Of a stretch of DNA of 64,000 nt, positions 4,116 to 57,510 are shown piece after piece (the first letter of the stretch is position 1; the number at the start of each line of letters is the position of its first letter). The translations under genes and the position numbers were made by a program. The notes under the pieces were generated by a model. The model ran no database searches, was not told where the DNA came from, and saw only the letters and a list, made by a program, of their open reading frames with translations. Origin of the DNA: Spizellomyces punctatus DAOM BR117 (Eukaryota); assembly GCA_000182565.2 (NCBI GenBank), contig KQ257461.1; one strand, 5' to 3'.

Positions 4116-5591
4116 TAATGTGGCTCGTGACGAGTAGCGAGTTGGGCACCCGTTCCACCACCAAAGTTGTGTTCTAAATGCCAGGCAACAAATGTCGCTC
4201 AGTTATTGCTTATCGTGCAGGGTGCTTATCGCGGTGGACAACCTTGCCATGCCAACAACGTCCTCCAATCAACTCCTGAATAACCACGTGACATTTTATG
4301 ATAGTATAAAAGCGTCTGTCTGAAGCAACTTTTGATTTTCTTTATCGACCAACTCTTCAGGATCATATGTGGAGTCTGTCGTACCTCGCTTTGTTTTCTA
4401 ACAAAGTCGCACATATCACCAAGGATGATGAGATGGAGAGCCTCCATCCAACGAGAAGTGGGGAGTTTTGGAAGCGTACTTTCACGTCGGTTCCCTCCCG
4501 TTGAAGATTTCTCCTCTGGGATATTCCAATCCGGTAGGAAGGATGGTGGGCTCCGTCTGACTTGGTGTGGCATTGAGTGTGTGGCATTGCCGCAATCTTT
4601 AGGCTTTGGCGCCTTTGTTGTCTCTTTGGTCTGAACGTTGCGTGCAATGCCACTCTTTATTGAATCAGGGTCGTCAATGATTATACTCTTTTTATATTTG
4701 CTACTTCAGAGACTCACATATGTGGGTCCATGAGAATGATTATCCACCCATAGAATATGATACGAACCTGAATTCTTTTTCATGCGCACTTTTTACATGA
4801 CGTCCGTGGGCGGAATATCCGCTTCATGTCGCTTGCATCTTTCATCGCACCAAAAAAACGGCATGTCGTGCGTCGACTGCCCAAGGTATTTGCCCCCCCC
4901 CCACATAAAGCCAGCCACACGTCAGCCACACGCCACTAAAAACGCTGTGTGGCGCTAGTGTGGCTGTCATAAAATTCAATATATCCTTTTTTGCTGTTCG
5001 GATGGAGCCACCGATGGCATAGTCATGCTGTGCCACTGCCTTTGTGGACGCTCAAAGGCCGCTTTGGACCAAACTTGAAATTTTGGCAAAGGTTGGGAAC
5101 TTGCTTTTTGCAAACGAAATTCCTTTGAGCTCCCGGTCTGCGAAGGAGGGCCGGTAAGACCATGGCATGGAAGGGTGTTTGCTTGCATATGGTGTTTACT
5201 GATTAGAGCCGTTGATGATACAGAGGATCCGTTGTCATTGTTGCTTGGTTTGTGCAGGCATTTTGTTCAACGTCGGAGGGTTTTGTCTGCACATTGCTTG
5301 GGATCATTGAAAAGGTATGTGTATATGAGCTGCATGGCCGAGTGATGCGGGCTGCCATGCACAAGAGTCCTAACTCTAAATGTTCGTGCGTGGACTTTTG
5401 CAGTTTGGTATTGTTTGCGGTGGCTTGTGAGCGATATGGCTGATACGCAAGAGCTTCAACCAAAGGAAGAGCTCCAAAGGACGGTAAGGGCAATACACTT
5501 TTCAGATATATGAGAAAGTGGACAATGCGCTAAACAATTTTGACTAATTTGCTAGGAGTCACCCATTCCTACGGTCTCCAGCCAAAAGTAC

Positions 5592-20707: not shown

Positions 20708-20778
20708 GCATTGGTGGTTTAGTGGTATAATTACCGCCTGCCACGCGGTAGATCCGAGTTCGATTTTCGGCCAATGCA
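20708..20778 (+). tRNA. tRNA-Gly(GCC)
   Basis: GCATTGG...CTGCCAC...TTCGATT...CCAATGCA cloverleaf; downstream T-run. Confidence 0.9.
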
Positions 20779-26735: not shown

Positions 26736-26806
26736 GCATTGGTGGTTTAGTGGTATAATTACCGCCTGCCACGCGGTAGACCCGAGTTCGATTCTCGGCC
26801 AATGCA
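26736..26806 (+). tRNA. tRNA-Gly(GCC)
   Basis: Full cloverleaf, anticodon GCC. Confidence 0.9.
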
Positions 26807-26947
26807 CTGGCAGTCCCCATCGGGTACTTTTGCGAGAGAGCGCTGGCATTACTTTTTGCATGGTTGACCCAGAATTACAAACGTTCGCTCGCAAATGAAA
26901 CAAACCCCCGAGGAGTAACCGCAATTCTAAAATGGCTGCAGTACATA

Positions 26948-27709
26948 GTGTGGAGGCGATTGAAAATGGCACTAAGACCCATTATTATCCGGATAATCCG
27001 GTTAATCATATCGCATAATCAGCACCCCCATCTATTGCTCAAAGCGGTGAGGCATGTATTGTAATGTTTTTTTTTTAAACTGCGGTGAGGCGCATGCCGA
27101 AGGTCTATAAAAGGGGACCTGCTCCCTCTTCCCTGTTTCCTCTTTATCCCTCGACTCGCAAGCATCTGCGCAATGCTCATTGCGACCCACATTGCAACCT
27201 CATAGCGACCCACACAACCTCATCGCGACTCGGTCAATCATGAGAACGCTGATGTGGTGGTGTCGAGGACCTCGACCGCCCGACAGTAACAGTGATCAGA
27301 ACCAGTGGCAACCAATCGGATCCGATAACAAAAACTACTATTATGCTGCCACATTAGTTGAGCTTGGTTGGTATGTACCAATGGCATCATCTCTTTTCAT
27401 ATTATTCTGTCGCTGACATGCATTTTTTTGTAGTCTCCAAGCCTTGTCACTGAACATCCTCTGGCTTGTGACGCTGCCCAGTCGATTTGCTCCTGGATGC
27501 AAGAGTCTGGCTTCAATGCCATCAAGAGTTCCAGATCAAGGCCTAGTAGGTCCGGACGCGTGTGGTGGTGGGCAATTATCCGGTTAGAACCAATCGTTAC
27601 GTATTGCGTGTATAATTGCCTATTAGTAGTTAGTTAACTTTTCCGAACCGGTTGTCGCCGGTTTATTCCCTGGTGTAGTAGCTAGTGCCAGTTTCTGTCA
27701 CCTCTACAC
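26948..27709 (+). mobile_element. Non-autonomous Fanzor (Spu-1-like) ghost transposon, copy 2
   Basis: CATA at 26944-26947 and TA at 27710-27711; same TIRs and interior as 1487-2224. Confidence 0.85.
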
Positions 27710-27726
27710 TAGCTATTGATGGTTGA
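27638..27726 (+). ncRNA. Fanzor omegaRNA-like scaffold plus predicted guide GCTATTGATGGTTGA
   Basis: Scaffold is identical to copy 1 while the element interior has diverged; the downstream flank differs. Confidence 0.8.
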
Positions 27727-29869: not shown

Positions 29870-32800
29870 GCTCCTTTATCGCACTGCTGCGGTCCCAGGA
29901 GGGAGATTGGTCGGAAGGCGTCGCTTCGCAGATACCAACGTATTGTTTCTCGACGGATCCGGACCACAACAGGGTCCACAACCTCTCATCTTACCCCTCC
30001 TACTTTGACCGTACATATTGCTCTGCAACCCACAGGCTTGCTCGTCACGCTCATTGAGATGGCTAAGGAAGTTGGTCCCGACTGGTGCCCCATGCGCTCC
30101 TCCCGTCACATGCAAATACCCACGCATAGCCGGTCCAGTATTGCGCCCTGCTGCAGCCAACTTTTCCTCGATCTCGGGCAGGAGTTCCATCATGCTTGCA
30201 AGGGCCTCGTACACTTGGACTGCGACTGTGTTGTATTGTTGGACGTGGCGTTCGACCGCCATACGGGCGGCCCCGAGATTGGTCCTGGCTAAGGTTCGAC
30301 TGGCTTCCCGCGCGACGCTCGTTGATGCGACTAGTTTGACTTATCGTAGAACCGGAATATCTCCTCCGGGGATCGGGAAATACGTTGAGACCCATTTGCT
30401 TCCGCAATCTCGCCAAGTCGACCCTCTACAAACTCAAAGGTCTTGCCACTCGCATAAGAGTCCGGTGCGATTTCTTGTAAGGGAGGCCATAACTCCCAGT
30501 GCAAAATTTAGGCCGTTCCACCACCATACGGACAGCGCCGAGATTCGCCTTCGCCATCGTCCGAGTAGCTTCTCGCGCAATGTTGGTGAGTGCTACCCGC
30601 TTCATCTCTCGCAACACCAGTAAATCGCCTCCCGGGATAGGACGGAACATGGATAGCCACACAGGTTTGGATGTGCCATTTCACCGCCATACGTGCGGCG
30701 CCGAGCGCGAGCGTACACGCGAAGAGTTGGACAAGCTCGTTCGTCCCCGCTGCGCGAATTCCATTGTTTCCTACAATCTTCAGTTACTTCAAACTACGGT
30801 TCTTCTGCTGTCGCCGTCGTTTAGTCTATTTGTAGTTACTTCACTGCGATTCTTTCCTTGCAGACAAGCACCCTGCGTGATCTCCGGGCGCCACGACTAA
30901 TCTCTTTCACGACAAGTGGTGCTCCCTTCCCTGTCCGCTCGCCGCCGCGAGCGTGAGGTCGTGCATCGACAAATGTCGCCGTTCGTGCCATGACTGTGTG
31001 GGTGTGCGGGTGTGACGTAAGTTGGTTTATTCACCCCTTACACTTTTGAAGGAATCAACGAATTCGATCTTGGTCGACCTCTACCAGCTGCCGAAAATGC
31101 CGTCTGGTAGCAACTTGACGTATGCGTGTGTCGTGCGTGTGTCGGTATGTTCGAAGAGGACGGCACAAAGGAGTCAATCAGTTGGACTCTCAAATAGTGT
31201 TGATCACACTCTTGTATGGCATCTGGGCCGCGGTGTGCCTCGCTTACTTTGCCCGCACATGTTGTTCTCCAGGCCGCACGTTACTTTGCCCGTACATGTT
31301 GTTCTCCAGGCCGCACGTCTGCTCGTCTTTTTCGTCAATATGACTGAGGAAGTTCGTCCCGACCGGCGCCCCTGTCGCTACTCCCGTAGTATTCAAGTGT
31401 CCGCGCATAACCGGACCAGTGTTCCGTCCCGACGCCGCCAACTTCCGTTCGACCACAATGTTATACACATAGAAAGCGAGGGCCTTGATGTCGTCGTTGG
31501 GCCAGGCGTAGGGTCCAGCAAGTGTCCTTGCCGCCTCTCGAGAGACGTCCGCCGATGCTACCCGTTTTATTCCTCAAAGAATCGGTAAGTCACGTCCAGA
31601 AACGGAGGGAACCATTGACACCCAAGGCTTGGCCGTAAAATATTTCCGGGAGCCGGTAACTACCGACACAGAATCTCCTGTCGAAAGCTTTGTATGCATC
31701 GTATGTCGTCTAGTGGATAATCACTCGAAAGGGTGTTGTCCCGTCGGTTCGGGGCTGCTGTCCCACAAGGCATTGCATAGCATCCGGGTTCGGTCAACTT
31801 CCTGTGAATGACGACGCCGGTGGCCTAGATGCCGAAAATACCAAAGGGTTTGAGAATGCGCATTTGAGGTCAATAGCATTTAGAGTACCATCCATACCTT
31901 ACCGCAATCAACGTCTCTCTTGAAGAACCCAAAAAGGAATTTAAAACTGATAAACCAGAAAAGAATCGATACGGTTTCGCGGATGCCAGGTGAAAGTCCG
32001 ACTCGACCGTAGACAGAAATTGGGAGGAAGATAAAACGCGACGCAGGCAAATCAAACTGAATCCGGGATACACAGATCATCGTCTTGAAGCCGATCGGTT
32101 GCATACTGGCCAAAGCTTCGTACACTTGAGCTGGAACGGTATTGTATCGGTGAAAGTGTCGTTGGGCCGCTAGATGCTGAATCCGGGATACACAGATCAT
32201 CGTCTTCAAGCCGATCGGTTGCATACTGGCCAAAGCTTCGTACACTTGAGCTGGAATGGTATTGTATCGGTGAAAGTGTCGTTGGGCCGCTAGATGTCTA
32301 GGTATTCAGCTCCCCGAAGACGAATTATACGCACTGCCCAACAGACTCTCAAACCCCGATATTAGTTGCGGTGGGTAATGGGTACCGTTCACTTTGCTCG
32401 CAGGTAGGTGAGCAGTTCATCGGTGACTTTGAAGGGTTCGTCTAAATCAACCGAGGCGAGGAGGGGCACATTCGACGACAGGGCGAGCGGCGGCAGGCGA
32501 GGGGGGAGGCTTGGGTGGAAGAATGTTTCTTCTTCGGCGAGCTTGTTTCGAATCCAAGTTTTTGATGCGACTGGCCATGTGTGTGTGTTTTGTGCGTGAG
32601 GGTGTGGGATCGGGTGGTCGAAACGGCTGGCCATGTTTGTGCGGTTGGAGTCGATGTGCGTGTTCTCCGGTATAGTTTGACTGTCGGGAGAGGACGGCAG
32701 AAAAGAGTCAAACAGTTGGGCTTTTCGAATGGCGTTGACCAAGCTCTGTATGGCATCCGGGTTAATGGTGTATTGTGTGTTGCGTGTGTCGGTGTGCTGT

Positions 32801-36186: not shown

Positions 36187-37443
36187 TACGTTCGGGCCCG
36201 GGAGGAGGGGGGCGGGCGGTGTCAAAGGGGGCGGACGGCGATATGGGTGTTGTGCGAGTGATGGGTGTGGTGTGTTGTGGGATGGTCGAAAAGGCTGGCC
36301 ATGTTTGTGCGGTTGGTGTGGGTGTGGGTGTCTCTGTAGTATGGTTTGTGTGTGTCGGGACAGGACGGCAGAAAAGAGTCAAACAAGTTGGGCTTTTCGA
36401 ATGGTGTTGATCAAGCTCTCTATGGCATCCGGGTTAACGACAGAGGTGCTGGTTTTCATAGAAAAAACGGTCGCTGAGCCCATGACCGGAGGGTTCTGTT
36501 GCAGACAGCGTCCATTCCCCACGTCCAAATTGCACTGAGACTGCCGATCTGTCGCTGCACATATGATTTGCAAACAGTTGATGCCTGCGGATGAACGGAT
36601 GAAAAAGCCTCTTGCCAGAGCGTCATTTGACAAATGAAATCGAGGGCGGAGCCCATGTGTGGAGATTTGGGGGGAAGACGTTTTCCCTCAACGTCCAAAA
36701 TGGCACTGAGACCGTAAAACAAGTCGTCGGGTGGGAACTGAAAGCCGCGTTGTTGCGACCAAACGCATCAAATTGAGGCTTAAAGTCTGTGAAGAACGTT
36801 CTCAATCTCCACATGTCATTGCATGAAATGACACCAAGGCTTGCACACCTTGTCCCTATCGATATTTGCATCATGCACTGCTGTGTAATTCCCTTGATAC
36901 TTCAGGACAATGAAACCTACCAGCTGATTGCAATGCCCACTTTGCACTGCCCACCCCGTAGAATTCCGATGCGATGGAACAAACGTGGGCATGTGCAAAA
37001 AACCGTCGCTCCCATGCGGACAGCCAAGAGCAAAAAAGTTTGATTTCCCACAAACGGATGGGGGATACGTTACATGGAGCCGTTTACTTTGGCAGCTCCC
37101 CTATTAACCAGAAAAGTAAAAAGAGTAAAAGCGCTGCCAAAGAAAAAAAGAAAGAGAAAAGCCGCTTTATACGGAGGGAATTCTGGTATAAAAAGAGAAG
37201 GATAACAAGAGTCGCGAGAGCAAGAGCAGCAGCAGCAGGTGGAACAAACACAAAGTCGTAAAGTCCCTGCCCGAGTGACCTACGGTGGGCTGACTGCCAA
37301 CTTTGTGAACGACCTTTTTGTGAGCACACGAGAGAAAATACCTCATTGATATATGGCATCATTTTCTCTACTGTACTCACAAATGTCTCGTTCAACAAGG
37401 TTGGCAACCGATTCTAGGGTCACACGGTTAGACTTGCTAATAT

Positions 37444-37581
37444 TTAACCCATGTCCAACACCCGTCAGAACTGTCAAAACAATTGATGTATTTGTCTTAC
37501 AAGAAGATAGATATTGTTAACAAGTCCAACTCGGATATCAGTCGTTTTGACAGTTCTGACGGGTGTCGGACATGGGTTTAA
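37444..37581. repeat. ~44-bp stem hairpin (inverted repeat)
   Basis: AACCCATGTCCAACACCCGTCAGAACTGTCAAAACAATTGAT pairs with ATCAGTCGTTTTGACAGTTCTGACGGGTGTCGGACATGGGTT. Confidence 0.9.
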
Positions 37582-38747
37582 GATTATGTAATGATCGTGA
37601 CTCATTTCACGTTACCAACTGGTTGAGAGTCCTCGTATTTGGACAACGTCTAACCTGTGTGGGCGTGGGCGATACTCTAGGAGAATGCTTGTTATCTTCT
37701 TACGTTCCTAGGCGGTCCATTCACTCGATACCTGGATCCGTCTGAAGAAACATTGGAATGGAGAAGGCTGAGAGGGAAAGGATTGATGGGGAGAAACCAA
37801 AGGAGACGGGCGGAAAATGGAAAGGAAGGGAAATGCGACAACATACGAAATGTCGAATAATTGCTTCCAATCCGCACGCTTCCGTTTCGCACATTATGGC
37901 ATTAACCACTATAACAGTCCCATCTCATCCGCTTCAAAAAGCGCCCCAAGGCAAAACCAAAAAGAGGAAGCCCATTTCGCTCGAATACATCGTTTCGTGC
38001 CGACGGTCGAAACAGAATGCTAAATCCTCGACCTATTGTGTCCAGTGACTCTCTTTTCGGTGCATCTTTTTGCATACAGTAATAGTTAAGAACCACGATC
38101 AATTTGCCAATATACCACACACAAAATGTAACGAAACGAATCGTAGGTCCTGCGAAAATGCTTGTATTTTTCGCTGAAAGAGGTAATAGCATGCGGTTTT
38201 GTCGTGTTTTTACATATCTCATCGTTTTCCAGTACCTCCAGTGTAATTACCCCAAGTTTTGGTCGCAACATTTGCTCATGATAGATAAGATCTCTGCAAG
38301 TGGATGCATATCAAAATCTTGCAAGTTTCCAATCACGTTTTGATAATGTATCAACTATATACCATTGTATCTATCTGTGTAGTTTCTTTGTATATTGCCC
38401 AAAAATACAGAAGGGGGGGAAAAATACAAGTAACGAGTCACTCCAGCCTTGAAACAATGAAGGGTATATTTCCACTAACATTTCCTTTTCCATCAAGCAT
38501 TTCGTTATTGGCAATTGGCACAAAGCTATCACACCAGGACGAGTCAGCTATGACAAGAAAACATCCTACTTTCACGGTTCATGGCCGAGTCCGCTATAAA
38601 TTCTTTTAGGTACGCACTCGGGCCCCCCAGGATTTCTTAAGATTTATCAAGCGTCCCACTTTGCCATCATCTCCGGTACATCATGAAATCGACATCCCTT
38701 CGGTCGCTCTGCGACGACAATGTTCGACACGAGGTGAGAGGTGACAC

Positions 38748-38835
38748 GTTGCTAGGCAACATTTATGAACATCGGAATTTCGGAATGGGATTTGATTGGC
38801 TGTCTGACACGTCATCATTCAACGCGGTTATAAAA
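38748..38835 (+). promoter_or_regulatory. Promoter module: RFX X-box (GTTGCTAGGCAAC), reverse CCAAT, GACACGT, TATA
   Basis: X-box 38748-38760, TGATTGG, TATAAAA 38829-38835; the same motifs are conserved at 42612-42723. Confidence 0.55.
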
Positions 38836-38928
38836 GGGAGCCCACCACGCGTTTTCCCTCACACTCTACTTCTCCCTTCCACTTCAACGACCAACACCGA
38901 CCGTCACCGGGACGGACTTCTTCTCTAG

Positions 38929-39603
38929 GTGGGTGGGGGACAACCATGGTTGCTGGATCGGGCTGCAATTTTGAAGTCCTGCTGGGGCTGCAGCATGTTA
39001 TTTCTTGGGCTTCCCACGGTATCTGATTCGGGCCTTGAGCTGCTGGGGCTGTGGTCGGTCGGAGGTGGCATGTTGTGGTATCTGTCGGGGATGGATGGTT
39101 GTAGGCAGCCTGCTGGGGCTGCAGCATATTATCTTCTTGGGCTTCCCACGGTATCTGATTCGGGCCTTGAGCTGCTGGGGCTGTGGTCGGTCAGGGGATA
39201 GCATGTTGTGGTATCTGTCGGGGTGTGATTCATGGGTTGGGATCAGCTTGCAATTTTGAAGTCCTGCTGGGGCTGCAGCATGTTACTTCTTTGGGCTTCC
39301 CACGGTATCTGATTCGGGCCTTGAGCTGCTGGGGCTGTGGTCGGTCGGAGGTAGCATGTTGTGGTATCTGTCGGGGATGGATGGTTGTAGGCAGCCTGCT
39401 GGGGCTGCAGCATGTTATCTTCTTGGGCTTCCCACGGTATCTGATTCGGGCCTTGAGCTGCTGGGGCTGTGGTCGGTCAGGGGATAGCATGTTGTGGTAT
39501 CTGTCGGGGTGATCTTGGCCCTGCCGGGTCGGCAAGTCTACTTGTGGCATCGGTGTATCATGGTCTTTATGGCGCAAGCTAACCCCTGCCCGCATTCCTT
39601 TAG
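38929..39603 (+). ncRNA. Intron carrying four tandem ~120-140 nt hairpin units (family 2 RNA)
   Basis: Donor AG|GTGGGT at 38929, branch GCTAAC 39578-39583, acceptor TTTAG at 39603. Repeated CTGCTGGGGCTG and GGTATCTG(T/ATT)CGGG motifs; CAGCATGTTA pairs with TAGCATGTTG through G-U pairs. Confidence 0.6.
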
Positions 39604-39859
39604 GTATCCTTTTCTCAAGGAGCGCGCGACTTCGACTATTCGGCCGACAGGATTTAGTTCAGCTTTTGGGGCGCGGACTTTGTACAATAGGCCTTGTAAA
39701 ATATGCATGACTATGAATATATTGATCCCTGTGTATGAGATATTCGCTTTGTATTTTATTCTCATTTCCCGACACTTTAGTCCTATGGGGCGTCCACCAG
39801 CAAGCCAACATACATCTGGGATGCGTGTAATCACCGGAGGTTAATGCAAAATGGAGCAT

Positions 39860-40500
39860 TTCGCCATAAATTCCACTGTGTTGGAGAACGGACGGCTGGC
39901 TCGGAATGTGCGCGCGAGAGCACTGGGAGATACTACGCATCCGACGTACGAAAGTTTCTGTCAATAAACGTAAAGCATTGTCCATTTGCATGCATGCTAG
40001 AAGAGAATGCAGGTCAAAGAGAATGCCAAGAGGTGAAAGCGCTGTTTGTTTGGGATGGCATTCTGCGAAGCCGTTATCAGCCGACAATGAGAGAAGCATC
40101 TGGACAATTCCTTTGCAAGAGGACGCCCACTCGTTCAAATCCCCCCTCGTGGCAAAAATCGTCTCCACCACTGTGGGCGGCACCAGCAGGACCTTCTTGT
40201 AGACAGCATCAGTCGTTTTGACAGTTCTGACGCATTTTGCGCTACCAACTGGTTGCGAGTCCATCCACGTCCTCCCATGTAGATTTGGAGAACGTCTAAC
40301 CTGTATGGGGGTAGGCGATACTCTAAGAGAATGCTTGTCATTTTCTTACGCTTAGGATAAAACGGTCCATTCACAATATACCTGGATCCCACTGAAGAGA
40401 CATTGGAATAGACAGGCTGAGAGGGAAAGGATTCGTCAGGAGAAAGCAAGGGAGACGGGCGGAATGGAAGGGAAGAGATATGAGGACAAGATACGAAATG
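39860..40500 (-). pseudogene. Unidentified gene fragment; paralogous relics at ~37540-37860 and ~43450-43700
   Basis: Overlapping frameshifted ORFs 39659-40264 and 40135-40449; DNA identity blocks shared with 37.6-37.9 kb. Confidence 0.4.
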
Positions 40501-41276
40501 TTGAATAAGAGACAGGAAGATGCGGGATGGAGATTAGTACAATATCACTCGTGGCAGCAATGTCGCAAATGGCGGTCTTTGCATGCAGTATATTCGGGTC
40601 ATTCATGTTTCATTCATAAATTTGGATTATCCATCTATACTCTCGTCGTATATGTTTGAAAGGATCCGCTTGCCAGAGAGATTATAGGTAACATAATGAA
40701 GATATGTATGATGGATCAAATACGATTGTATCGCTCACTTGGGCTGCATTGGCATCAGGTGAATCGAACACACGGAGCATATCGAGCAAGTATACTACAG
40801 AACTGTACAAAGTGTTAGCCCCATGGTGGCAACGTTTCTCCAACACCTTATCTGATCGGCCCGAAATGGTAGCAAGTCAATTCCCGACCCACAGGCTTAA
40901 ACCTCAGCGTCGTTTTCATGAGGTGGCAGTTTCAGTGCAATTTGGACATGGGAACGTCTCCCCAATCTCCATAGGTTCCGCACTCTCTGCAATGCAAGAT
41001 GGCCGTACATCCGGAGGTATCATTCTTTTGCCTGCATGTGCGCAGCCTGTGCCATACCTGCAAAACGCCCCCCGCCCAGTTTACTTTTGCTATTGGAAAC
41101 TGGATGGCTCACGCCTTCAATGTCAAATGTCGCAAAGGGCGAACGCCAGTTTATTTTTGTTATTTGCCTATGCCGCCGTTATGCCATATGAAGCTTCGCA
41201 GCTATAAAAGGGGAGCAGTGTCCCAACGCAGCAGCGACCCATCACCACAACGGCAGCAACGACACATCACAGCAGC

Positions 41277-41919: not shown

Positions 41920-42810
41920 AGCGGACGGTGCTGTGAGTGCTTCGGACCATAGGACGTGTCATAGGAAGCTTGGATAATGCGCGATAAAGACCACCAGTAC
42001 TTGGCGCATTTACCCAGATCTAGATAATCGCCGGTCGATGAAGGATCTTTCTTGCTGATATTATCCGCGCTTTCTTTGGACGTGTTTGATATCATTGATA
42101 CGCGACGGGAGATGGCGGACAGTAAATCCTCACTTCGGTTCAACATTTCACACTCCATCAAGATAGTTTCCAATAAAATATTATATGAGTAACTGTGATT
42201 TAATGGTAGTAGTTATAAGATTTATTTTCTACTATTCGGAATTCACATAGTACAGTAATACCAATATAGTAGTTAGAGAATATCTAACTTATACTGTAAG
42301 TTTGACCGTACACATTTAGTCCGAGGGGTAGGCAATCCCAGTGATGATGCCCTACAAGTAGACAGGATTTCCCCCAGGTCACCCAGGTCAGAGAGCGGGA
42401 CACATCACCAATGATACCTGTTTCTGAATCCAGCGCTATTTTTGAGGGTACGACTTGGACAAGCCAGGTTGTCCCAACATGCTGACTAGTTCTTGGCTTG
42501 TGTTCAACTGATCATTGCATTCCATCAACGCCTTCCCGTCTTCTTTTCGTCATTCGTCAAACATGGATATCGGTCAATTATGGGAGATGTCGATCGAGTC
42601 GCGACTATGATGTTGCTAGGCAACCAATACGGAACATCGGAAATCGGAAGTCGGAAAGTATCGGCACGTAATGGAATCTGATTGGCTGACAGACACGTGA
42701 TGTTTTTTTTCACGACTATATAAGGAGACCCCCGCGCGTTCTCCCCATCAATGTACTTCTCCCCTCCACCACACCAACAACGACCGTCGCCGGGACGGAC
42801 TTCTTCTCAG

Positions 42811-43219
42811 GTGGGTGGGGGACAACCATGGTTGCTGGATCGGGCTGCAATTTTGAAGTCCTGCTGCGGCTGCAGCACGTTATCTCCATTGGCCTGCCAC
42901 GGCATCTCCGGGCTCTTGAGCTGTTGGGGCTGTTTGAGTTGTCGCGGCTGTGGGTGGTCTGGGGGTAGCGCGTTGCGGTATCTGTCGGGGATGGAGGGTT
43001 GCAGTCAACCTGCTGGGGCTGCTGCACGTTATTCTTTAGGGGCCTGCCACGGCATCTCCGGGCCTTTTGGCTGTCGCGGCTGTGGGTGGTCAGGGGGTAG
43101 CGCGTTGTGGTATCTTTCGAGGTGTGATCTTGGCCCTGCTGGGTCGGCAAGTCTACTTGTGGCATCGGTGTATCATGGTCTTATATGGCGCGAGCTAACC
43201 CCTACCCGCAGTCTTTTAG
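42811..43219 (+). ncRNA. Intron with two family 2 hairpin units (paralog of 38929-39603)
   Basis: Same X-box/TATA promoter, exon 1, donor GTGGGT, branch GCTAAC and acceptor; stem variant CAGCACGTTA/TAGCGCGTTG. Confidence 0.6.
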
Positions 43220-44703
43220 GTATCCATCATCAAGAGTGGTTCACCGCAACTGTTCAACGGAAGTTGTGCAAAAAAGATTGTGTTCAGTTTTGGGGAGCGT
43301 GCTGTGTAGAATCGACTTTGTAAAATATGATTTTTAATACATTGATTCCTGATCTCAAATCTCCAAGATTTCCTCTTTGAATTGTCCTATTGATGCGGTT
43401 ACTGCCTTGGATTTTGCTTTCTACTTTCCATTTCCATCACATCGTTTCCATCATGCGAGATGCTGCGCATTCGACAATGTGTCAATTTCTGTCAGTAAAT
43501 GTAAAGTATTGTTCGATGCATGCGTGCTGGAGGAGGAGAAGCCGGTCAGCCGACAATTGACTCGATAAAGGATGCCCACTCGTTTCGAACGCCACCACCT
43601 CCACCACAGTAGCCCGCACCAGCAGGATGACAAACTTCAGAATATAGAATTCTTCCCCAAATCAGCGTCCATGGGAAGAGCGTTAGTACGGATAGCAAGG
43701 AGTCCAACGACAAATGATTAGTGCGCATCCTACAGGACCGATTCTAAGGCCGCAAGGGAAGGTTAAATGGGCATACTGCCGGGTTCTCAAACGAGGGCAG
43801 GGACCGCCAATCAAGTCTATTCTCTGCCCAACTGACTTGCAATCAGCATCAAACGGGGGCTTTTGCTGAGCAGTAGTATCAGCGGGTTTGTTAGCAGACA
43901 AGGCTAAAAAACGATCTATGCCCGAATGCCAAGAAAAACTACTCTCATTCAGCAGCTTTGCGATTATGAAAGGTAGGCCGCTTCAGCGGACTCCAAACAC
44001 TACGGCGGCAACATCCCAACGACACCACCAACAAAAATCGCATCATATCGGCGACCATGCGGATATGAGCTGAGCAAACGCTGCATGTGCAAGGTGACGG
44101 ACGTGTGTCATGGTTGATCGAGAGCGACCGTCTGGGTCAATACTCAAAACCATGTGTGTGGAGAGAAACGCATGCAGAGTTCCAATAGACAAGGCATTGC
44201 TCCACATTGGCCGCTTAAAACGATGTTTCTCCAATCGTCGCTCGATCGAACATGGTCTAGATGCAGTATCCCCAAAACCGTTCGCCTGCTGCGACAATTC
44301 GCATCTCTGAACGATTCTTGCAATGGACTATACGCAGCGATCCACGACGTAGCTGGCTGCAAAGTGTGTTTCCGATCACACCAATATCAAAGAGCGTGGC
44401 AATAGTATTCATTCACGATGGGAGTCCTGTTGTGCAAACATCTGTAGATATGTTGATCCAGAAATTTGCTAGGCTTTCAGATTAACAATCCCCACGCCGA
44501 ATGAGCAAAAACTTATGTGACAATTGCGAGACATGCGGAAGGAGTATGATGTTATCGCCACTTAACCAGCGATGCTTATGTTACCGCCTTGGTACCGTTC
44601 TTTGTTATGCACAGCAGCAATTTGTGAATACCCGTTTCATTAGCAAAAGAAATATCGTAAAATGTAGAGTCCACCTCTCAAAAGTTATTCCTACAATTGC
44701 AGA

Positions 44704-44774
44704 TGCATTGGCCGAGAATCGAACTCGGGTCTACCGCGTGGCAGGCGGTAATTATACCACTAAACCACCAATGC
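44704..44774 (-). tRNA. tRNA-Gly(GCC)
   Basis: Reverse complement of the 26736-26806 copy. Confidence 0.9.
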
Positions 44775-44961: not shown

Positions 44962-45275
44962 ATGAGTGACACCGTTAACGAGACTTCTGCTTCCAAAGTG
45001 AGTATTCAACTCCAGAGTTCCCCTCGGTAGTTGAAGACCGCCTTTGGCGGTGGGAACGGTTCCCGCTAGCTTGTCTGTGCGGCCATCCTGGGCAGGGATC
45101 TGTGTTCGCACCACCTCGGCTGGGATCACCGTATGGGGTCATTCCAGTCCGAGCACACGTTTATATTAGCAGCTTGGCTTTCAACTTCAAACTTATGTCA
45201 ACTTGGCTTTTTAAACATTCTAGCGCCGTGAGTTTGAGAGGATCAAGCTCGAACTGTTTCAAAAAGGCTTTGCTG
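44962..45275 (+). pseudogene. Truncated N-terminal paralog of the nuclease gene with family 1 RNA in its intron (44998-45223)
   Basis: MSDTVNETSASK|GTGAGT...TTCTAG|RREFERIKLELF resembles nuclease exon 2 RRMDFDKIKSSLL; the intron contains GAAGACCGCC...CCAGTCCGAGCAC. Confidence 0.65.
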
Positions 45276-46172: not shown

Positions 46173-46790
46173 ATGAGCGACATTCCCACCCACAAAGAGC
46201 ACAAGGAATCGCTCAAAAGAGCAGCAGAAGAAGCAGGGACCTTGCAACGCGATGAGGAGGGGCGCAAGAAAGCCCGCGCCAAGTCTGTGAGTATTCAAGA
46301 TTTCCCCTCGGTAGTTGACGACCGCCAATGGCGGTGGGAAAGATCCCCGCGGCTTGTCTGTGCGGCCGTCCTAGGCGGGCCCGTGTATTCGCACCACCTG
46401 TTCGACTGTGAGATCGCCGTATGGAGTCATCCAGTCCGAGCACTCGATTACAGTTGCTCAATTTTGCATTCAACATTTTAGCCCCGAGATGAGTTTGAGA
46501 AAATCAAGCTCAGCCTTTTACAACAAGGCCTTGCTGTTCATGACAAGGTTGCGTCGGCGCAGGACAAGTTGGCGGAGGCTAACTTGCTCTATGCACAAGC
46601 GGTAGCTGGCCTAATGTTCGCACCTTTGATAAATTGATTGTGATTTTGGTTCATTATATTGCGTTTTCAATAGGCCACTTGAGGAGGACAGTGCATCGTC
46701 CTCGGACAGTGAAGAGCAAGAAAACGTGTCCTCTGAGAAGCGAAAGGACTCACTGAGCAAATCTGAAGAAGCTCATCCTCTCAAAAACGG
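46173..46790 (+). pseudogene. Truncated N-terminal paralog with family 1 RNA intron (46287-46481)
   Basis: MSDIPT... versus nuclease MSNVPT...; donor GTGAGT; exon 2 DEFEKIKLSLL; no nuclease domain follows. Confidence 0.65.
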
Positions 46791-47289: not shown

Positions 47290-47620
47290 ATGAGCGACAT
47301 TCCCACCAGCGAAAAGTACAAGAAATTACCCAAAAGAGCAACAGAAGAAGGGGGTACCTTGCAACGCGATGAGGAGGGGCACAAGAAAGCCCGCACCAAG
47401 TTTGTGAGTATTCAGCTCAAGTGTGCATCTCGGTAGTTGACGACCGCCAATGGCGGTGGGAACTGTACCCCGCTAGCTGTGAGGCCGTCCTTGGCAGGGG
47501 CCCGTGTATTCGAACCACCTGTCCGGCTGGGATCACCGTTCATCGCATGGGGTCATCCAGTCCGAGCACTCGTAATAGTTGCAGCTTTGATACTCATATG
47601 GTCAATTCTCAGCACTGGAC
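47290..47620 (+). pseudogene. Truncated N-terminal paralog with family 1 RNA intron (47404-47612)
   Basis: TATAAAA ~47238, ACGCGT, MSDIPTSEKY..., donor GTGAGT, RNA element copy. Confidence 0.65.
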
Positions 47621-49023: not shown

Positions 49024-51708
49024 CATCATATCCCGAACAAAAAAGGGAGAGCGCACTAGACATGTTGTAAAACGGAAAAAATGGTCTTAGTATACAGAGT
49101 TTAAAGCGTGAAAATCAACGCTGCATCTATCATCGAGTGCTCGGACTGGATGACCCCATACGGTGATCCCAGCCGGACAGGTGGTACGAATACACAAACC
49201 CCTGCCCAGGACGGCCTCACAGACAAGCTAGCGGGGACCGTTCCCACCGCCGTTAAGCGGTCTTCAAAGCACATACTCGCATAGCGGACTGGATGACCCC
49301 ATACGGTGATCCCAGCCGGACAGGTGGTACGAATACACAAACCCCTGCCCAGGACGGCCTCACAGACAAGCTAGCGGGGACCGTTCCCACCGCCAAAAGG
49401 CGGTCTTCAACTACCGAGGAGGACACTTGACGTGAATACTCACCGCAGGACAAGGCTTGCTCAGGCCGACAGAACAAGTCACGGTTCTCGAGTGGTCCCT
49501 ACGAGGATATGTTGTAAAAATGGAAAATACTGGTATCAGTATACAGAATTTAAAGCGTGAAAATCAACGCTGGAACTATTAATGAGTGCTCGGACTGGAT
49601 GACCACCATACGGCGATCTCAGCCGGACAGGTGATGCGTATACACAGACCCCTGCCTAGGACGGCCGCACAGACAAGCCGCGGGAACCGCTCCCACCGCC
49701 AAAAGGCGGTCTTCAACTACCGAGGAGGAGACTCGACTTGATACTCACCGCAGGACAAGTCTTGCTCAGGCCGACAGAACAAGTCACGTTTCGCGGGGTT
49801 CTGTGACAATATGTTGTAAATGCAGAAACATGATATTAGTATGAAGTCGAAAACTTGCAATTCAAACTGTACTATAATAGAGGTGCTTGGACTGGATGAC
49901 CACCATGCGATGAACAGTGATCCCAGCCGGACAGGTGGTACGTATCCACAGACCACAGACCCCTACCTAGGACGGCCTCACAGACAAACCGCGGGAACCG
50001 TTCCCACCGCCGTTAAGCGGTCTTCAAAGCACATACTCGAATAGCGGACTGGATGACCACCATGCGATGAACGGTGATCCCAGCCGGACAGGTGGTACGT
50101 ATCCACAGACCACAGACCCCTGCCTGGGACGGCCTCACAGACAAGCCGCGGGGACCGTTCCCACCGCCAAAAGGCGGTCTTCAACTACCGAGGGCAACTC
50201 TTGAGTTGAGTACTCACCGCAGGACAAGTCTTGCTTGCTTTGGCCGACGGAACAAGTCACGCTTCGCGATGTCCTGTGACGATATGTTGTAAAATGGAAA
50301 CAAAATTGGTATTAGTACAGAGTTAAAGCGTGGAAATCAAATCTGCAACTACAATCGAGTGCTCGGACTGGATGACCCCATGCGATGAACGGTGATCCCA
50401 GCCGGACAGGTGGTACATATCCACAGACCACAAACCCCTGCCTAGGACGGCCTCACAGACAAGCCGCGGGGACCGTTCCCACCGCCGTTAAGCGGTCTTC
50501 AAAGCACATACTCGAATAGCGGACTGGATGACCCCATGCGATGAACGGTGATCCCAGCCGGACAGGTGGTACGTATCCACAGACCACAAACCCCTGCCTA
50601 GGACGGCCTCACAGACAAGCCGCGGGGACCGTTCCCACCGCCCAAAGGCGGTCTTCAACTACCGAGGAGGACACTTGAGTTTGAAATACTCACCGCAGGA
50701 CAAGTCTTGCTTAGGCCGATGAACAAGTAACTGTTCGTGCGATCCCTGTGCGGATATGTTGTAAAACGCAAACAAAATTGGTATTAGCACAGAGTTTAAA
50801 GCGTGAAGATTAAAGCTGCAACTATAACGAGTGCTCGGACTGGATGACCCCCATACGGGAACCTCAGCCGGACAGGTGGTTCGAATACACGGGCCCCTGC
50901 CAGGGACGGCCTCACAGACAAGCTAGCGGGTAACCGTTCCCCCGCCGTTAAGCGGTCTTCAAAGCACATACTCGAATAGCGGACTGGATGACCCCCCATA
51001 CGGGAACCTCAGCCGGACAGGTGGTTCGAATACACGGGCCCCTGCCAAGGACGGCCTCACAGACAAGCTAGCGGGGTACCGTTCCCACCGCCCAAAGGCG
51101 GTCTTCAACTACCGAGGAGGACACTTGAGTTGAAACTCACCGCAAGACAAGTTTTCCTAACAACGACGCCACGATTGGAGTGGTCCCTGTGAGGATATGT
51201 TGTAAAATGGAAACAAAATTGGTATTAGCACAGAGTTTAAAGTGTGAACATCAACGCTGCATCTATCATCGAGTGCTCGGACTGGATGACCCCATACGGT
51301 GATCCCAGCCGGACAGGTGGTACGAATACACAAACCCCTGCCCAGGACGGCCGCACAGACAAGCTAGCGGGGACCGTTCCCACCGCCGTTAAGCGGTCTT
51401 CAAAGCACATACTCGCATAGCGGACTGGATGACCCCATACGGTGATCCCAGCCGGACAGGTGGTACGAATACACAAACCCCTGCCCAGGACGGCCGCACA
51501 GACAAGCTAGCGGGGACCGTTCCCACCGCCCAAGGGCGGTCTTCAACTACCGAGGAGGACACTTGAGTTTGAAATACTCACCGCAGGACAAGTCTTGATG
51601 CAGATGTGCGTACGCCGGCTGCGCATCGCTTGTGGGGGTGGACTGCTCATCTTGCAAGAGTTCGACGCGTTATGAAAGGGGGGGTGCGGATCATTTCGGG
51701 CTTTTATA
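49024..51708 (-). ncRNA. Spliced non-coding host transcript: six repeated introns carrying 11 copies of the family 1 structured RNA
   Basis: TATAAAA 51708-51702. Introns 51581-51187, 51140-50746, 50693-50274, 50217-49801, 49748-49499 and 49443-49056, each GTGAGT...YAG. Exons of 46/52/56/52/55/32 nt; the spliced frame from ATG 51650 stops after ~32 codons. Confidence 0.75.
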
Positions 51709-52931: not shown

Positions 52932-55131
52932 ATGTCGAACGTGCCTACGGTAGAAGAATACATCAACGCCAACCCAGCTGGCACCTGGGATGAATACCGA
53001 GCTCTGCTCAAGCAAGCACAAGAAGATCTGTCCACAATGCCAAAGAAGATACGCCCCCGTATCGAAGGCCGAATCAAGACACATCTGGCTGTGAGTATTC
53101 AAGTCAAGAGTTCCCTGGGTAGTTGAAGACCGCCTTTGGGCGGTGGGAACGGTTCCCGCGGCTTGTCTGTGAGGCCGTCCTAGGCAGGGGTTTGTGGTCT
53201 GTGGATACGTACCACCTGTCCGGCTGGGATCACCGTTCATCGCATGGGGTCATCCAGTCCGAGCACTCGTTTATAGTTGTAGCTTTGATTTTCACGCTTT
53301 AAACTCATATGGTGATGTTCAATGTAGCGTCGGATGGATTTCGATAAGATCAAGAGCAGCCTCCTGGATCGAGCCCTGGGTGCGCATGTGGACATAGCGC
53401 ACACCCAATTGGACGTAGCACACACCAATAGGGTGATTGTCGATACAGTGACAGGCAAAAGGTGTGAAGCGCATTTTCTGCATTGATTGACATATCAGTG
53501 CATTGAATCGTCTTTGTGTAGTAGGCTCATTCGTGAGGACAGCCCCTCGTCCTCCGACTATGGTTCCGACTACGCTCCTTCCTGCTCGACCACGCAGGAG
53601 ACGGACGTGGATAGTGACGATCGTGTCGCTTTGTTCAACCATGAGCAGCATGTGATGGCACAGCTGCTCAAATTGGGAAGAACCCTCCTGCCGTCCGGAG
53701 TTCTATTGGAAGCGGTGATGGCTTCCAATGCCATTCGTGTCGAGAATGAGAGGTAGTGTATCGTGCCTCTATTGTAACACATGAATTCCGCTCTTGTACT
53801 CATGGCGTCACAGTCCCGCCCATTCCTTTATCTTCGATCTTGAAGAGATGAGCGCTCTGCGCCGGAGGGACCCAGCCGCATTTGCAAAAGAAGACCTGGT
53901 GTTCGTGAGGGGCCTATGGAACGAGCGCCCCAGCTCAAAATACACCAAGTTTTTCTACTGTGACCCTGAACAGAGATACGAGGTGTTCACGACACCGGGT
54001 CTTCGCAAGTGTGCCGACTTTTTGTCACGGTTAGAGAAGGTATAGACGTTTGTGTGTCAAGCCTCGAGCCCTCTCTAATGTGGATCGTCCTCGCAGATGA
54101 GTAGCCAAGGTAACACCTTAGAAGAGGTGTTGGATTTCATGTTTCGGGTGGGCGGAGAGAATGTATCACCCTACCGTGAACTTTACTCGGTCATCCTTCA
54201 GTTGTAAGTCGTTGCCCTTGGGCTCTTACGATTCCTAGATATAGGCTTGACTATTATTTGATCTTAGCTGTCTCCACTGGACCAAGGAAGTTTGTCCCAT
54301 GACGCGCGAAGCGGATTATATGCGCCTATGGAACAGACTGTTCTACGACCTTGCACCCCGAGGCCTCTTCACCAGTACACCCGAAGAGAGCGTGCATGCA
54401 AGCAAGACGCGTAAGCTTATGCATGCAGGGGAAGATAGGAAATGGGTGCGAGGTCGCAAGGCCGACATGCTATGGGTGACGTTGGATGGGACGGCCCTAG
54501 TATGGATGGAGGCCAAGAAAGGGTCGTGGACAGAGGACCCTGGAGAAGCTGAAGGGGCGACGCTGAAGGCGACGAAGGGCTCCAAAGACGCGATGGATGC
54601 GATCCAGCGTAAGAAAGGAACAGCCCTAGAAACATGGGCGTGTGTTAATTTGGGGGAAGAGTGGACCCTTCGCTGTTCGTATCGCCTGCCCAGTGGCGTC
54701 GTCGTCACCGGCAATGTTGGGGAATGGTGTCTGTCGATGGGATTCTCGAGCTTCGCTCGTCTTCTGGAAATGTGCCGTATAGTGCTCATTTGGGGGGTAA
54801 GGAAACAGTTTCCCCGATTCTATTGTATGTTCTGGGTATTGACATTCTTATGCTCTGTAGCTCGCGCTGGACGATAGTAGGCGCGAGATCATGCAGAAGG
54901 CCAGCTTGAGCCGATACCCCCGAGACGAAGAGGTGAACATGGCAGACACCTTCCCAACGCCGGAGAAGCCTAAACCGAAGGCACGGACTCAGAAGCCTGA
55001 AGATACTACGGAAGATACGGAAGATACACGGGAAGAGGCCTCACCCACCAGGAAAAAGTATGTCTTCTTGTTTTGCATAGCCGTACAACTGGTTCTCATC
55101 GTTCCTGTTCCTTGGTAGGTCTCGTCGTTGA
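52932..55131 (+). CDS. PD-(D/E)XK restriction-endonuclease-fold protein (Crinkler-REase-like, early-diverging fungal family), ~9 coding exons
   Basis: Open spliced frame: 52932-53090, 53328-~53379, micro-exon 53449-53461, 53525-53752, 53814-~54039, ~54097-54202, 54268-~54796, 54861-~55057, 55119-55131. Motifs E..SVHASKTRK, GRKADML, WMEAKK, KGSKD. Confidence 0.75.
53105..53270 (+). ncRNA. Family 1 structured RNA in the first coding intron (53091-53327) of the nuclease gene
   Basis: Near-identical to the array copies in introns 3-4. Hairpins ACCGCC/GGCGGT, GGGAA/TTCCC, GCGGCTT/AGGCCGT, GGCAGG/CCTGTC, GGCTGG/CCAGTC. Confidence 0.7.
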
Positions 55132-56699: not shown

Positions 56700-57510
56700 G
56701 ATCATCCATCGCATCTTTGGACCTTCGTCGCCTTCAGCGTCGCCCCTTCAGCTTCTCCAGGGTCTCCAGGGTCCTCTGTCCACGACCCTTTCTTGGCCTC
56801 CATCCACACTAGGACCGTTTCATGCACGTAGATTCAGGAAAAGTAACGGCTTGGTCTTATCGCCACTGCTGAAGTTACAGCCTTGTTTCCATTCATTATG
56901 CACAGCAGCAATCTGAGAATTCCCCCTAATTGTTTGACGCGTTGGGTCCACAACGCAAAAAAGTACGACGATGCCTGGTGCAATGCATTGTCCGAGAATC
57001 GAACTCGGGTTAACCGCGTGGCAGGCGGTAATTATACCACTAAACCACCAATGCTCGTGTATTCATTAATGAATCTCTATCATATGTCAATTTAACTGAA
57101 AATGGCCGCATTCACCGTGCGCGGCATCTGAAGTAACACACTTGCAGGACTTGTATTTACGCTCGAGAATACTGATCACCCTAACCTCTACACAAATCCA
57201 TTCCCGCCAGTGGCCCTAGCGGCAAGTCGGAGGCACCTGTTGCAAAAGTGGGAACAAAATAGATATACAATGCGCAAAACAAGATGAGAAGGGTTTTCCC
57301 CTTATCCCGAGGGTGATGTCGTTACAGGTAGATGACGCTCATCTATTCTGAGATCGCAACGAGATTGTTTCACTACATATTTGCGAATTAGTTACTGGGA
57401 GCGGGGCGATATGGGCGACGCTGAAGGCGACGAAGGGCTCCAATGGATGAGATCCAGCGTCAGAAGGGAACCGCCCTATAGACATCCTAAGTGTCAATCT
57501 TGGGCAAGAA
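56700..57510. pseudogene. Short nuclease-domain fragments in opposite orientations (~56700-56815 minus, ~57410-57510 plus)
   Basis: Matches to 54500-54660, e.g. GGCGACGCTGAAGGCGACGAAGG and TGGATGGAGGCCAAGAAAGGGTCGTGGACAGAGGACCC. Confidence 0.7.
56984..57054 (-). tRNA. tRNA-Gly(GCC), variant with an acceptor-stem mismatch (possibly pseudo)
   Basis: Cloverleaf as in the other copies but with a G7:A66 mismatch; its flank is homologous to the flank of the 44.7 kb copy. Confidence 0.7.

Follow-up and report, generated by a model that had tools for sequence, protein, structure and literature searches.

The window analysed here, a stretch of 64,000 nucleotides (nt) from contig KQ257461.1 of Spizellomyces punctatus DAOM BR117, contains two neighbouring paralogous RNA polymerase II (Pol II) genes, locus A and locus B, which are transcribed far above their surroundings and carry tandem hairpin units within an intron. 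All features of the two loci given below lie on the + strand. Upstream of the promoter of locus A lies the palindrome GTTGCTAGGCAAC (38748..38760), which is present without change in locus B (42612-42624), is invariant in the A/B alignment and, with up to 2 mismatches allowed, has no match in the window beyond the two loci; we take it to resemble an RFX X-box. It is followed by the conserved block GATTGGCTG...GACACGT (38794..38812), found only in A and B (42680-42698) and presumably an inverted CCAAT box, and by a TATA box, TATAAAAGG (38829..38837), recognised by sequence and position, whose counterpart in B is TATATAAGG at 42717. Exon 1 of locus A (38860..38928) is non-coding and has no ATG; its 5' end is placed at 38860 by estimation from the position of the TATA box. 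A spliceosomal GT..AG intron of 675 nt follows (38929..39603), with a branch-site-like GCTAAC at 39578-39583, and the non-coding exon 2 (39604..39779), delimited by RNA depth, ends inside the bin 39706-39779.

The initial annotation of this DNA had proposed a promoter, a short first exon without an open reading frame (ORF) and a single intron, and this gene model of locus A is correct, as RNA reads confirm both the start and the intron at 38929-39603. The reads come from one library, RNA sequencing (RNA-seq) run X8, of which about 6% was mapped as raw 60-nt reads to positions 38300-40500. Reads at locus A are of the + strand only; depth starts in the bin 38818-38891 (245x), reaches 3299x in 38892-38965, is mostly 9-31x over the array, amounts to 120-181x over the last ~100 nt of the intron and 181-231x in exon 2, is 104x in 39706-39779 and is 0 from 39780, and the flanks show 0-12x on either strand. 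The splice joint of A was mapped at 38925->39601 (with the cut moved by +3, 38928|39604, GT..AG) by 41 reads with 11 start places, and 562 further reads end in the loose letters ATCCTTTTCTCA, which are the start of exon 2 of locus A. Only ~3.5% of the exon-1 depth of A continues into its intron (73/226 reads at 38985 versus 2079/6649 at 38906), and ~3.3% in B, indicating efficient splicing; these percentages are rough, because the library clearly piles up reads at the 5' end of this particular short RNA. Independently, a root-metatranscriptome contig (run X1) spans 39503-39757, from which it departs by 5 differences and a single gap.

The depth step at ~39500 was considered as the start of a cleavage product beginning behind the last hairpin, and this candidate was rejected, since 92 of the 133 reads at 39525 carry the B variant; with ~70% of the reads over the last 100 nt of the intron belonging to B, the rise in depth of A itself is modest. 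Run X3 was likewise rejected as evidence of expression because it also covers the silent flanks and is thus DNA. A contig of 152 nt (run X2), which may derive from RNA or from DNA, is identical to 39005-39156 and carries no weight here. Minus-strand reads were seen upstream of the promoter at 38596-38669, with a peak of 12x, and are probably a divergent transcript; they overlap a sub-threshold Rfam match to the C/D small nucleolar RNA (snoRNA) snoR79 at 38626-38677 (15.5 bits versus 80, E 9.6).

Locus B (42612..43390), identified by motif searches, by self-BLAST (76-77% identity to A) and by alignment, lies 3.9 kb downstream of A on the same strand. Its architecture comprises promoter blocks as in A, a short exon 1, an intron at 42811-43212 and exon 2. 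Locus B is itself expressed and spliced: ~70% of the reads on exon 1 of A carry B letters (4446/6372 at 38897 and 4570/6649 at 38906), and 3947 reads pass beyond exon 1 into the loose letters AGTCTTTTAGGTATCC, part of exon 2 of B. As acceptor B uses a CAG that lies 8 nt further upstream than the acceptor of A. Identity between the two loci is 52% in the upstream flank, 61% in the promoter, 83% in exon 1, 100% (49/49) in the first 49 nt of the intron, 71-78% in the hairpin units, 91% in the last ~95 nt of the intron, 62% in exon 2 and 49% downstream. From the aligned sequences we read the order of conservation as intron ends, then hairpins, then exons, then flanks, with exon 1 (83%) and exon 2 (62%) both below the intron ends.

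The intron of locus A contains a tandem array at 38964-39511, detected by Tandem Repeats Finder with a period of 286, 1.9 copies and 98% matches, in agreement with the four tandem units proposed initially. The array is made of 2 x 286 bp comprising four hairpin units of 113-115 nt that start at 38978, 39109, 39263 and 39395, and a sub-period of 132 (94%) was found at 38978-39223. The two 286-bp super-units are 96.8% identical over 279 bp in self-BLAST, segments 39005-39225 and 39291-39511 are 99% identical in the repeat search, and across methods the identity is 97-99%. The array has grown by tandem duplication, the 286-bp step being the latest and very recent. A pair of motifs had been said to recur twice per unit. 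This holds for CTGCTGGGGCTG, of which there are 8 exact copies in the array, 2 per unit (when at most 1 mismatch is allowed, the window holds 12 matches versus 0.31 expected), and only loosely for GGTATCTGTCGG, of which there is one exact copy per unit, 4 in the array, its second place in each unit being taken by the variant GGTATCTGATTCGG. The motif pair simply represents both strands of the stems, basal and apical. Each of the two long arms is a direct copy of a single quasi-palindrome, AGCAUGUU, which pairs with itself through G·U.

Folding of the single units indicated one long hairpin of common architecture on the + strand in all six units of the two loci, with 39-44 pairs each. Fold z-scores were obtained from 300 dinucleotide shuffles per unit. 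In locus A the units are A1 (38978..39090; minimum free energy -47.8 kcal/mol, z -2.57, covariance-model score 115.7 bits), A2 (39109..39223; -44.4 kcal/mol, z -1.33, 127.2 bits), A3 (39263..39376; -50.2 kcal/mol, z -3.05, 124.9 bits) and A4 (39395..39509; -50.9 kcal/mol, z -3.07, 131 bits), while locus B carries B1 (42860-42990, z -3.29) and B2 (43009-43122, z -0.43). The A units form 42-43 pairs each and use both arm pairs named in the initial annotation, so that the proposed long G·U-rich hairpin per unit is borne out by the predicted fold. G·U pairs make up 27-40% of the pairs over all units and 35-40% in those of A, and the fold is therefore confined to the transcribed strand; the reverse complements of the units do not fold (z +0.3 to +2.1 over all six, +0.4 to +2.1 for those of A). 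The 681-nt region folded as a whole was no better than its shuffles (z -1.38), and G/U-rich sequence folds well anyway, the composition being A 0.13, C 0.21, G 0.36 and U 0.31.

RNAalifold found 42 pairs common to the six units, and 96.4% of the 251 pair cells hold standard pairs versus 38-54% once the partners have been shifted by 1-3 columns. In a permutation test in which the observed A-to-B substitutions were placed again on columns of the same base, the 25 substitutions of B1 break 3 pairs versus 7.6 +/- 1.65 expected (P 0.007) and the 27 of B2 break 5 versus 8.2 expected (P 0.06), two tests that are not independent, as many changes are common to both units. The substitutions between A and B thus appear to avoid breaking pairs, and the paralogue retains the fold at a unit identity of only 71-78%. 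A covariance model of the unit was run over the window with filters off; it recovered the six known units and one unrelated palindrome (37448-37576). The latter belongs to a self-inverted repeat of ~150 bp at 37438-37586 (75% identity), which scores 27-28 bits on both strands because it is a hairpin, and nothing more.

The ends of the intron are also predicted to pair with each other. The 5' block (38929..38977) includes the 5' splice site, and the 3' block (39510..39603) includes the branch site and the 3' splice site. Between them, one predicted helix of 11 bp (38929-38939/39583-39593, probability 0.98-1.0) holds the GU of the 5' splice site on one strand, its other strand following directly after the branch-site-like GCTAAC, and a second predicted helix of 8 bp joins 38943-38950 and 39557-39564 (probability 0.67-1.0); over both helices most pairs reach 0.96 or more. 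Locus B is predicted to form both helices too, the 11-bp one at a probability of ~1.0, with one U·G changed to U-A and the pair kept. With the array removed, the frame of the intron gave z -2.36 in A and -2.49 in B. According to these models the intron would be closed by a stalk with the hairpins at its tip, a stalk whose formation in vivo we infer. A perfect palindrome of 12 nt, CAACCATGGTTG, lies 13 nt inside the intron in both loci (38941-38952 in A, 42823-42834 in B) and could either be a site at the DNA level or belong to the stalk of the RNA. In its half-sites it is similar to GTTGCTAGGCAAC, with the arrangement reversed.

The genes at loci A and B are non-coding and have no conserved ORF. 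In A, exon 1 lacks an ATG and no complete ORF of the spliced RNA exceeds 11 codons; the spliced RNA of B has an ORF of 56 codons that is absent from A. The spliced exons are unstructured (z +2.38 in A and +0.57 in B). Open frames run across the array on both strands, in skewed composition, and the array was considered as a protein repeat; this was rejected, as none of 341 scored candidates proved to be a relative of the 190-amino-acid (aa) read-through ORF of B, splicing removes the region, and no frame is maintained from one unit to the next. A minus-strand ORF at 39659-40264 (201 aa) was also rejected as spurious, its DUF3703 match (E 0.0022) being below the cut-off and minus-strand reads reaching at most 1.5x.

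Membership of a known RNA class was searched for in several ways. No C box (RUGAUGA, or even UGAUG) was found in the intron of A or B, the D box CUGA, which a box C/D snoRNA carries near its 3' end beside a terminal stem, appears a single time in each A unit, midway along the hairpin (39023, 39155, 39309, 39441), and is absent from both B units. An H/ACA snoRNA has ACA three nt from its 3' end and an ANANNA hinge between two hairpins; each intron here has one ACA, at 38940 for A and 42822 for B, both inside the 5' stalk block, and B has no ANANNA. Identity as a snoRNA was therefore rejected: C, H and ACA boxes were not found, CUGA is misplaced and there is no Rfam match. At the gathering score Rfam gave nothing relevant over the whole window, nor did any match relevant to the locus appear in 38400-39900 even at E up to 10; the best score there was to mir-4841, with 24.9 bits versus a gathering score of 100, and another match reached 17.2 bits. 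No transposable element (TE) domain was detected in the 10 ORFs scanned, which included the ORF adjoining the locus. A search of the literature on Spizellomyces, in sources available in part, found no publication on the locus or on RNA interference, Dicer or Argonaute in the species.

The reading that we tentatively prefer is that each locus is a host gene in which selection acts on the intron RNA, either intact or processed into its hairpins; it is drawn from the conservation gradient, the ORF-less and unstructured exons and the very high transcription. Each gene has a pair of short exons, both weakly conserved and unstructured, and a single long intron that is removed efficiently. The first ~50 nt and the last ~95 nt of that intron would pair into the stalk, from the 5' splice site to just past the branch site. 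At its tip this stalk would bear tandem G·U-rich hairpins of ~113-131 nt, four in A and two in B. Splicing would then release a stalk-closed multi-hairpin intron RNA, as with snoRNA and microRNA (miRNA) host genes, and the intron may persist after splicing.

Several observations weigh against this host-gene reading. Conservation is lower in the hairpins than in the stalk and A has 4 of them versus 2 in B, which is unexpected if the hairpins are the product, and gene conversion between A and B, in place of selection, could account for the high identity of the intron ends, the identical 5' block included. Covariation is thin, with 2 pairs (4 cells) changed on both sides in an alignment of which 4 of the 6 rows are near-duplicates and in which B1 and B2 share many substitutions. 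The 11-bp end-to-end helix is moderately beyond chance in shuffles (P 0.018 in A, 0.014 in B), and in B 3.3% of other 15-mers match such a run. Depth over the array is low, ~0.5-1.5% of the roughly 2000x of A exon 1 and ~10% of that of exon 2, and no stable intron or hairpin RNA was seen in this one library, which may have been poly(A)-selected and in which small RNAs, and perhaps non-adenylated ones, would go uncaptured. Metagenomes scanned with either conserved block of the intron, 5' or 3', yielded 0 matches each time, and no relative was found beyond the window.

The nearest alternative is a neutral intronic minisatellite, that is, a self-folding module copied by replication slippage or unequal crossing-over and tolerated, which we regard as possible. 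The stalk would hold the 5' splice site by the branch site, so that extra self-folding copies would spare splicing, and the gene would act, if at all, through its spliced RNA or through transcription as such. The differing copy number of the paralogues and the latest 286-bp duplication (97-99% identical) fit such an origin, as do the efficient splicing of an intron of 675 nt, the faster divergence of the units than of the stalk, and the presence in the window of a second, unrelated intron family likewise multiplied in tandem; the G·U richness could stem from a C-to-U bias on the non-template strand under heavy transcription. On the other side, the substitutions between A and B break fewer pairs than under random placement (P 0.007 and 0.06), the units can still be aligned at 71-78% where the flanks, at 49-52%, are at the level of unrelated sequence, and the exons, which read as lowest within the gene in both conservation and structure, leave no obvious function outside the intron. 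The initial annotation had named an untranscribed minisatellite as the contrary case, and the array is transcribed.

A cluster of small-RNA precursors of the Dicer type, miRNA-like, with each hairpin released from the nascent or excised intron and diced into products of ~21-24 nt after the manner of polycistronic intronic miRNA clusters in non-coding genes, would be a sub-case of the host-gene reading and seems unlikely to us, although long imperfect hairpins (42-44 pairs) do stand in tandem in the intron of a non-coding Pol II transcript, these pairs include a run of about 19-20, the hairpin is long enough for a duplex of ~21 nt, and the sole Rfam matches (24.9 and 17.2 bits versus 100) are to a miRNA precursor model, in keeping with a generic hairpin shape. 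G·U pairs at 27-40% argue against it, as does conservation that peaks at the hairpin base and the linker and not over ~21 nt within an arm; moreover, according to the accessible part of PMC6206976, Drosha and Pasha are missing in fungi and their unicellular relatives. It is less probable still that the array acts as DNA, through transcription-factor sites or intron-mediated enhancement behind the very high expression, with the RNA fold incidental. It does lie 150-650 bp from the start of a gene transcribed >100-fold above its neighbours, CTGCTGGGGCTG is repeated 8 times, and conserved palindromes occur upstream (38748) and just within the intron (38941), but the fold is strand-specific and depends on G·U pairs that are meaningless in double-stranded DNA, the substitutions keep RNA pairing, and a non-coding gene has no clear need of such expression. 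Least probable of all, in our judgement, is a mobile-element part, either a fragment of a long terminal repeat (LTR) or other TE or an introner-like element spreading as an intron. Stable predicted structure and paired intron ends do occur in introner-like elements, as described in the available text of PMC3609843, and direct repeats of ~320 bp flank locus A (37537-37860 and 40208-40508, 78-82% identical). The duplication, however, took the whole gene with promoter, exons and intron, and not the intron alone; two copies are present in 64 kb, the covariance model finding no further unit; no TE domain was found among the ORFs scanned, nor was any other TE feature seen of the LTR or TE origin raised at the outset; and the flanking repeats have no visible LTR-like ends, nor does locus B have such repeats.

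If the intron is the product, chytrids, which are early-branching and little-studied fungi, hold host genes for a structured intron RNA that has no Rfam counterpart, and the paralogues with 2 and 4 hairpins are a natural dosage series. That the intron, in place of the spliced RNA, would represent an unseen class of RNA in chytrid fungi, displaying 2-4 identical G·U hairpins as a multivalent scaffold or a small-RNA precursor, much as the initial annotation had proposed, and one of a set of genome-wide 'intron genes', is a further step that we consider doubtful. If instead the array is a tolerated minisatellite, self-folding modules together with an end-to-end stalk would let a fungal intron expand several-fold with splicing kept. 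Either way the locus is an unusually highly expressed non-coding gene, which should be masked or annotated so that no spurious ORFs are called across it.

The surrounding window contains further repeats and RNA genes. Units of the other intron family, family 1, lie on the + strand at 44998-45196, 46285-46457, 47403-47591 and 53067-53308, and units of minus-strand sense lie within 49059-51597, a 2.5-kb block with many repeats of exon end, donor and intron unit. Each family 1 unit follows a donor-like site, GTGAGTATT, behind a short ATG-bearing exon, and the single intron at 44998-45223 gave a fold z of -1.92. The initial annotation had seen the same design in both families; this is true only loosely, as the family 1 units stand behind GTGAGTATT donors of ATG-bearing exons and not in an ORF-less gene of the type of A. 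The ~320-bp direct repeats flanking locus A are probably remnants of the tandem segmental duplication that produced A and B, and the downstream copy (40208-40508) has almost no RNA coverage. Four tRNA-Gly(GCC) genes were found, at 20708-20778 (+), 26736-26807 (+), 44704-44774 (-) and 56984-57054 (-), as well as a U3 snoRNA gene at 4345-4565 (+, 57 bits). Local duplications are many, for example 1481-2226 versus 26942-27711 at 87%, and a perfect-looking 120-bp tandem duplication lies at 32057-32296 (2.0 copies, 98%). The tRNA and U3 genes and the local duplications suggest a segmentally duplicated region rich in RNA genes.

In design, loci A and B appear to come nearest to host genes that are non-coding and bear arrays of hairpins in an intron, in the company of snoRNA host genes such as GAS5/UHG, and near also to the zipper stems and extruded stems of yeast introns. 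[quoted passage not shown] The second predicted helix of A (38943-38950/39557-39564) leaves a linker of ~28 nt. In the outer helix, which runs right up to the branch site, the GU of the 5' splice site is itself paired, and this helix would therefore have to open for splicing. The yeast introns with zipper stems belong, in the same partial text (PMC12350175), to protein-coding genes, mostly of ribosomal proteins, and have no tandem hairpin array. Introner-like elements of fungi are long, have stable predicted structure and occur as hundreds of copies in unrelated genes (PMC3609843, in the portion available); the introns of A and B are like them in exceeding ordinary length and in their stable predicted fold, but differ in being present as two copies within the 64-kb window that were duplicated with their own promoter and exons. 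Compared with snoRNA and miRNA host genes, the units of A and B have neither snoRNA boxes nor an Rfam match, and no processed product was seen in the one RNA library; all units of a gene lie in one intron and not one per intron as in intron-array host genes, and conservation appears to peak in the stalk that closes the intron and not in the repeated hairpins. The likeness is nevertheless to host genes of the type of human C19MC, an intronic miRNA cluster of a non-coding host gene (PMC2691840, from the part of the source at hand): in A and B, too, a non-coding spliced Pol II transcript bears tandem hairpins in an intron, and the exons read as less conserved than the content of the intron.

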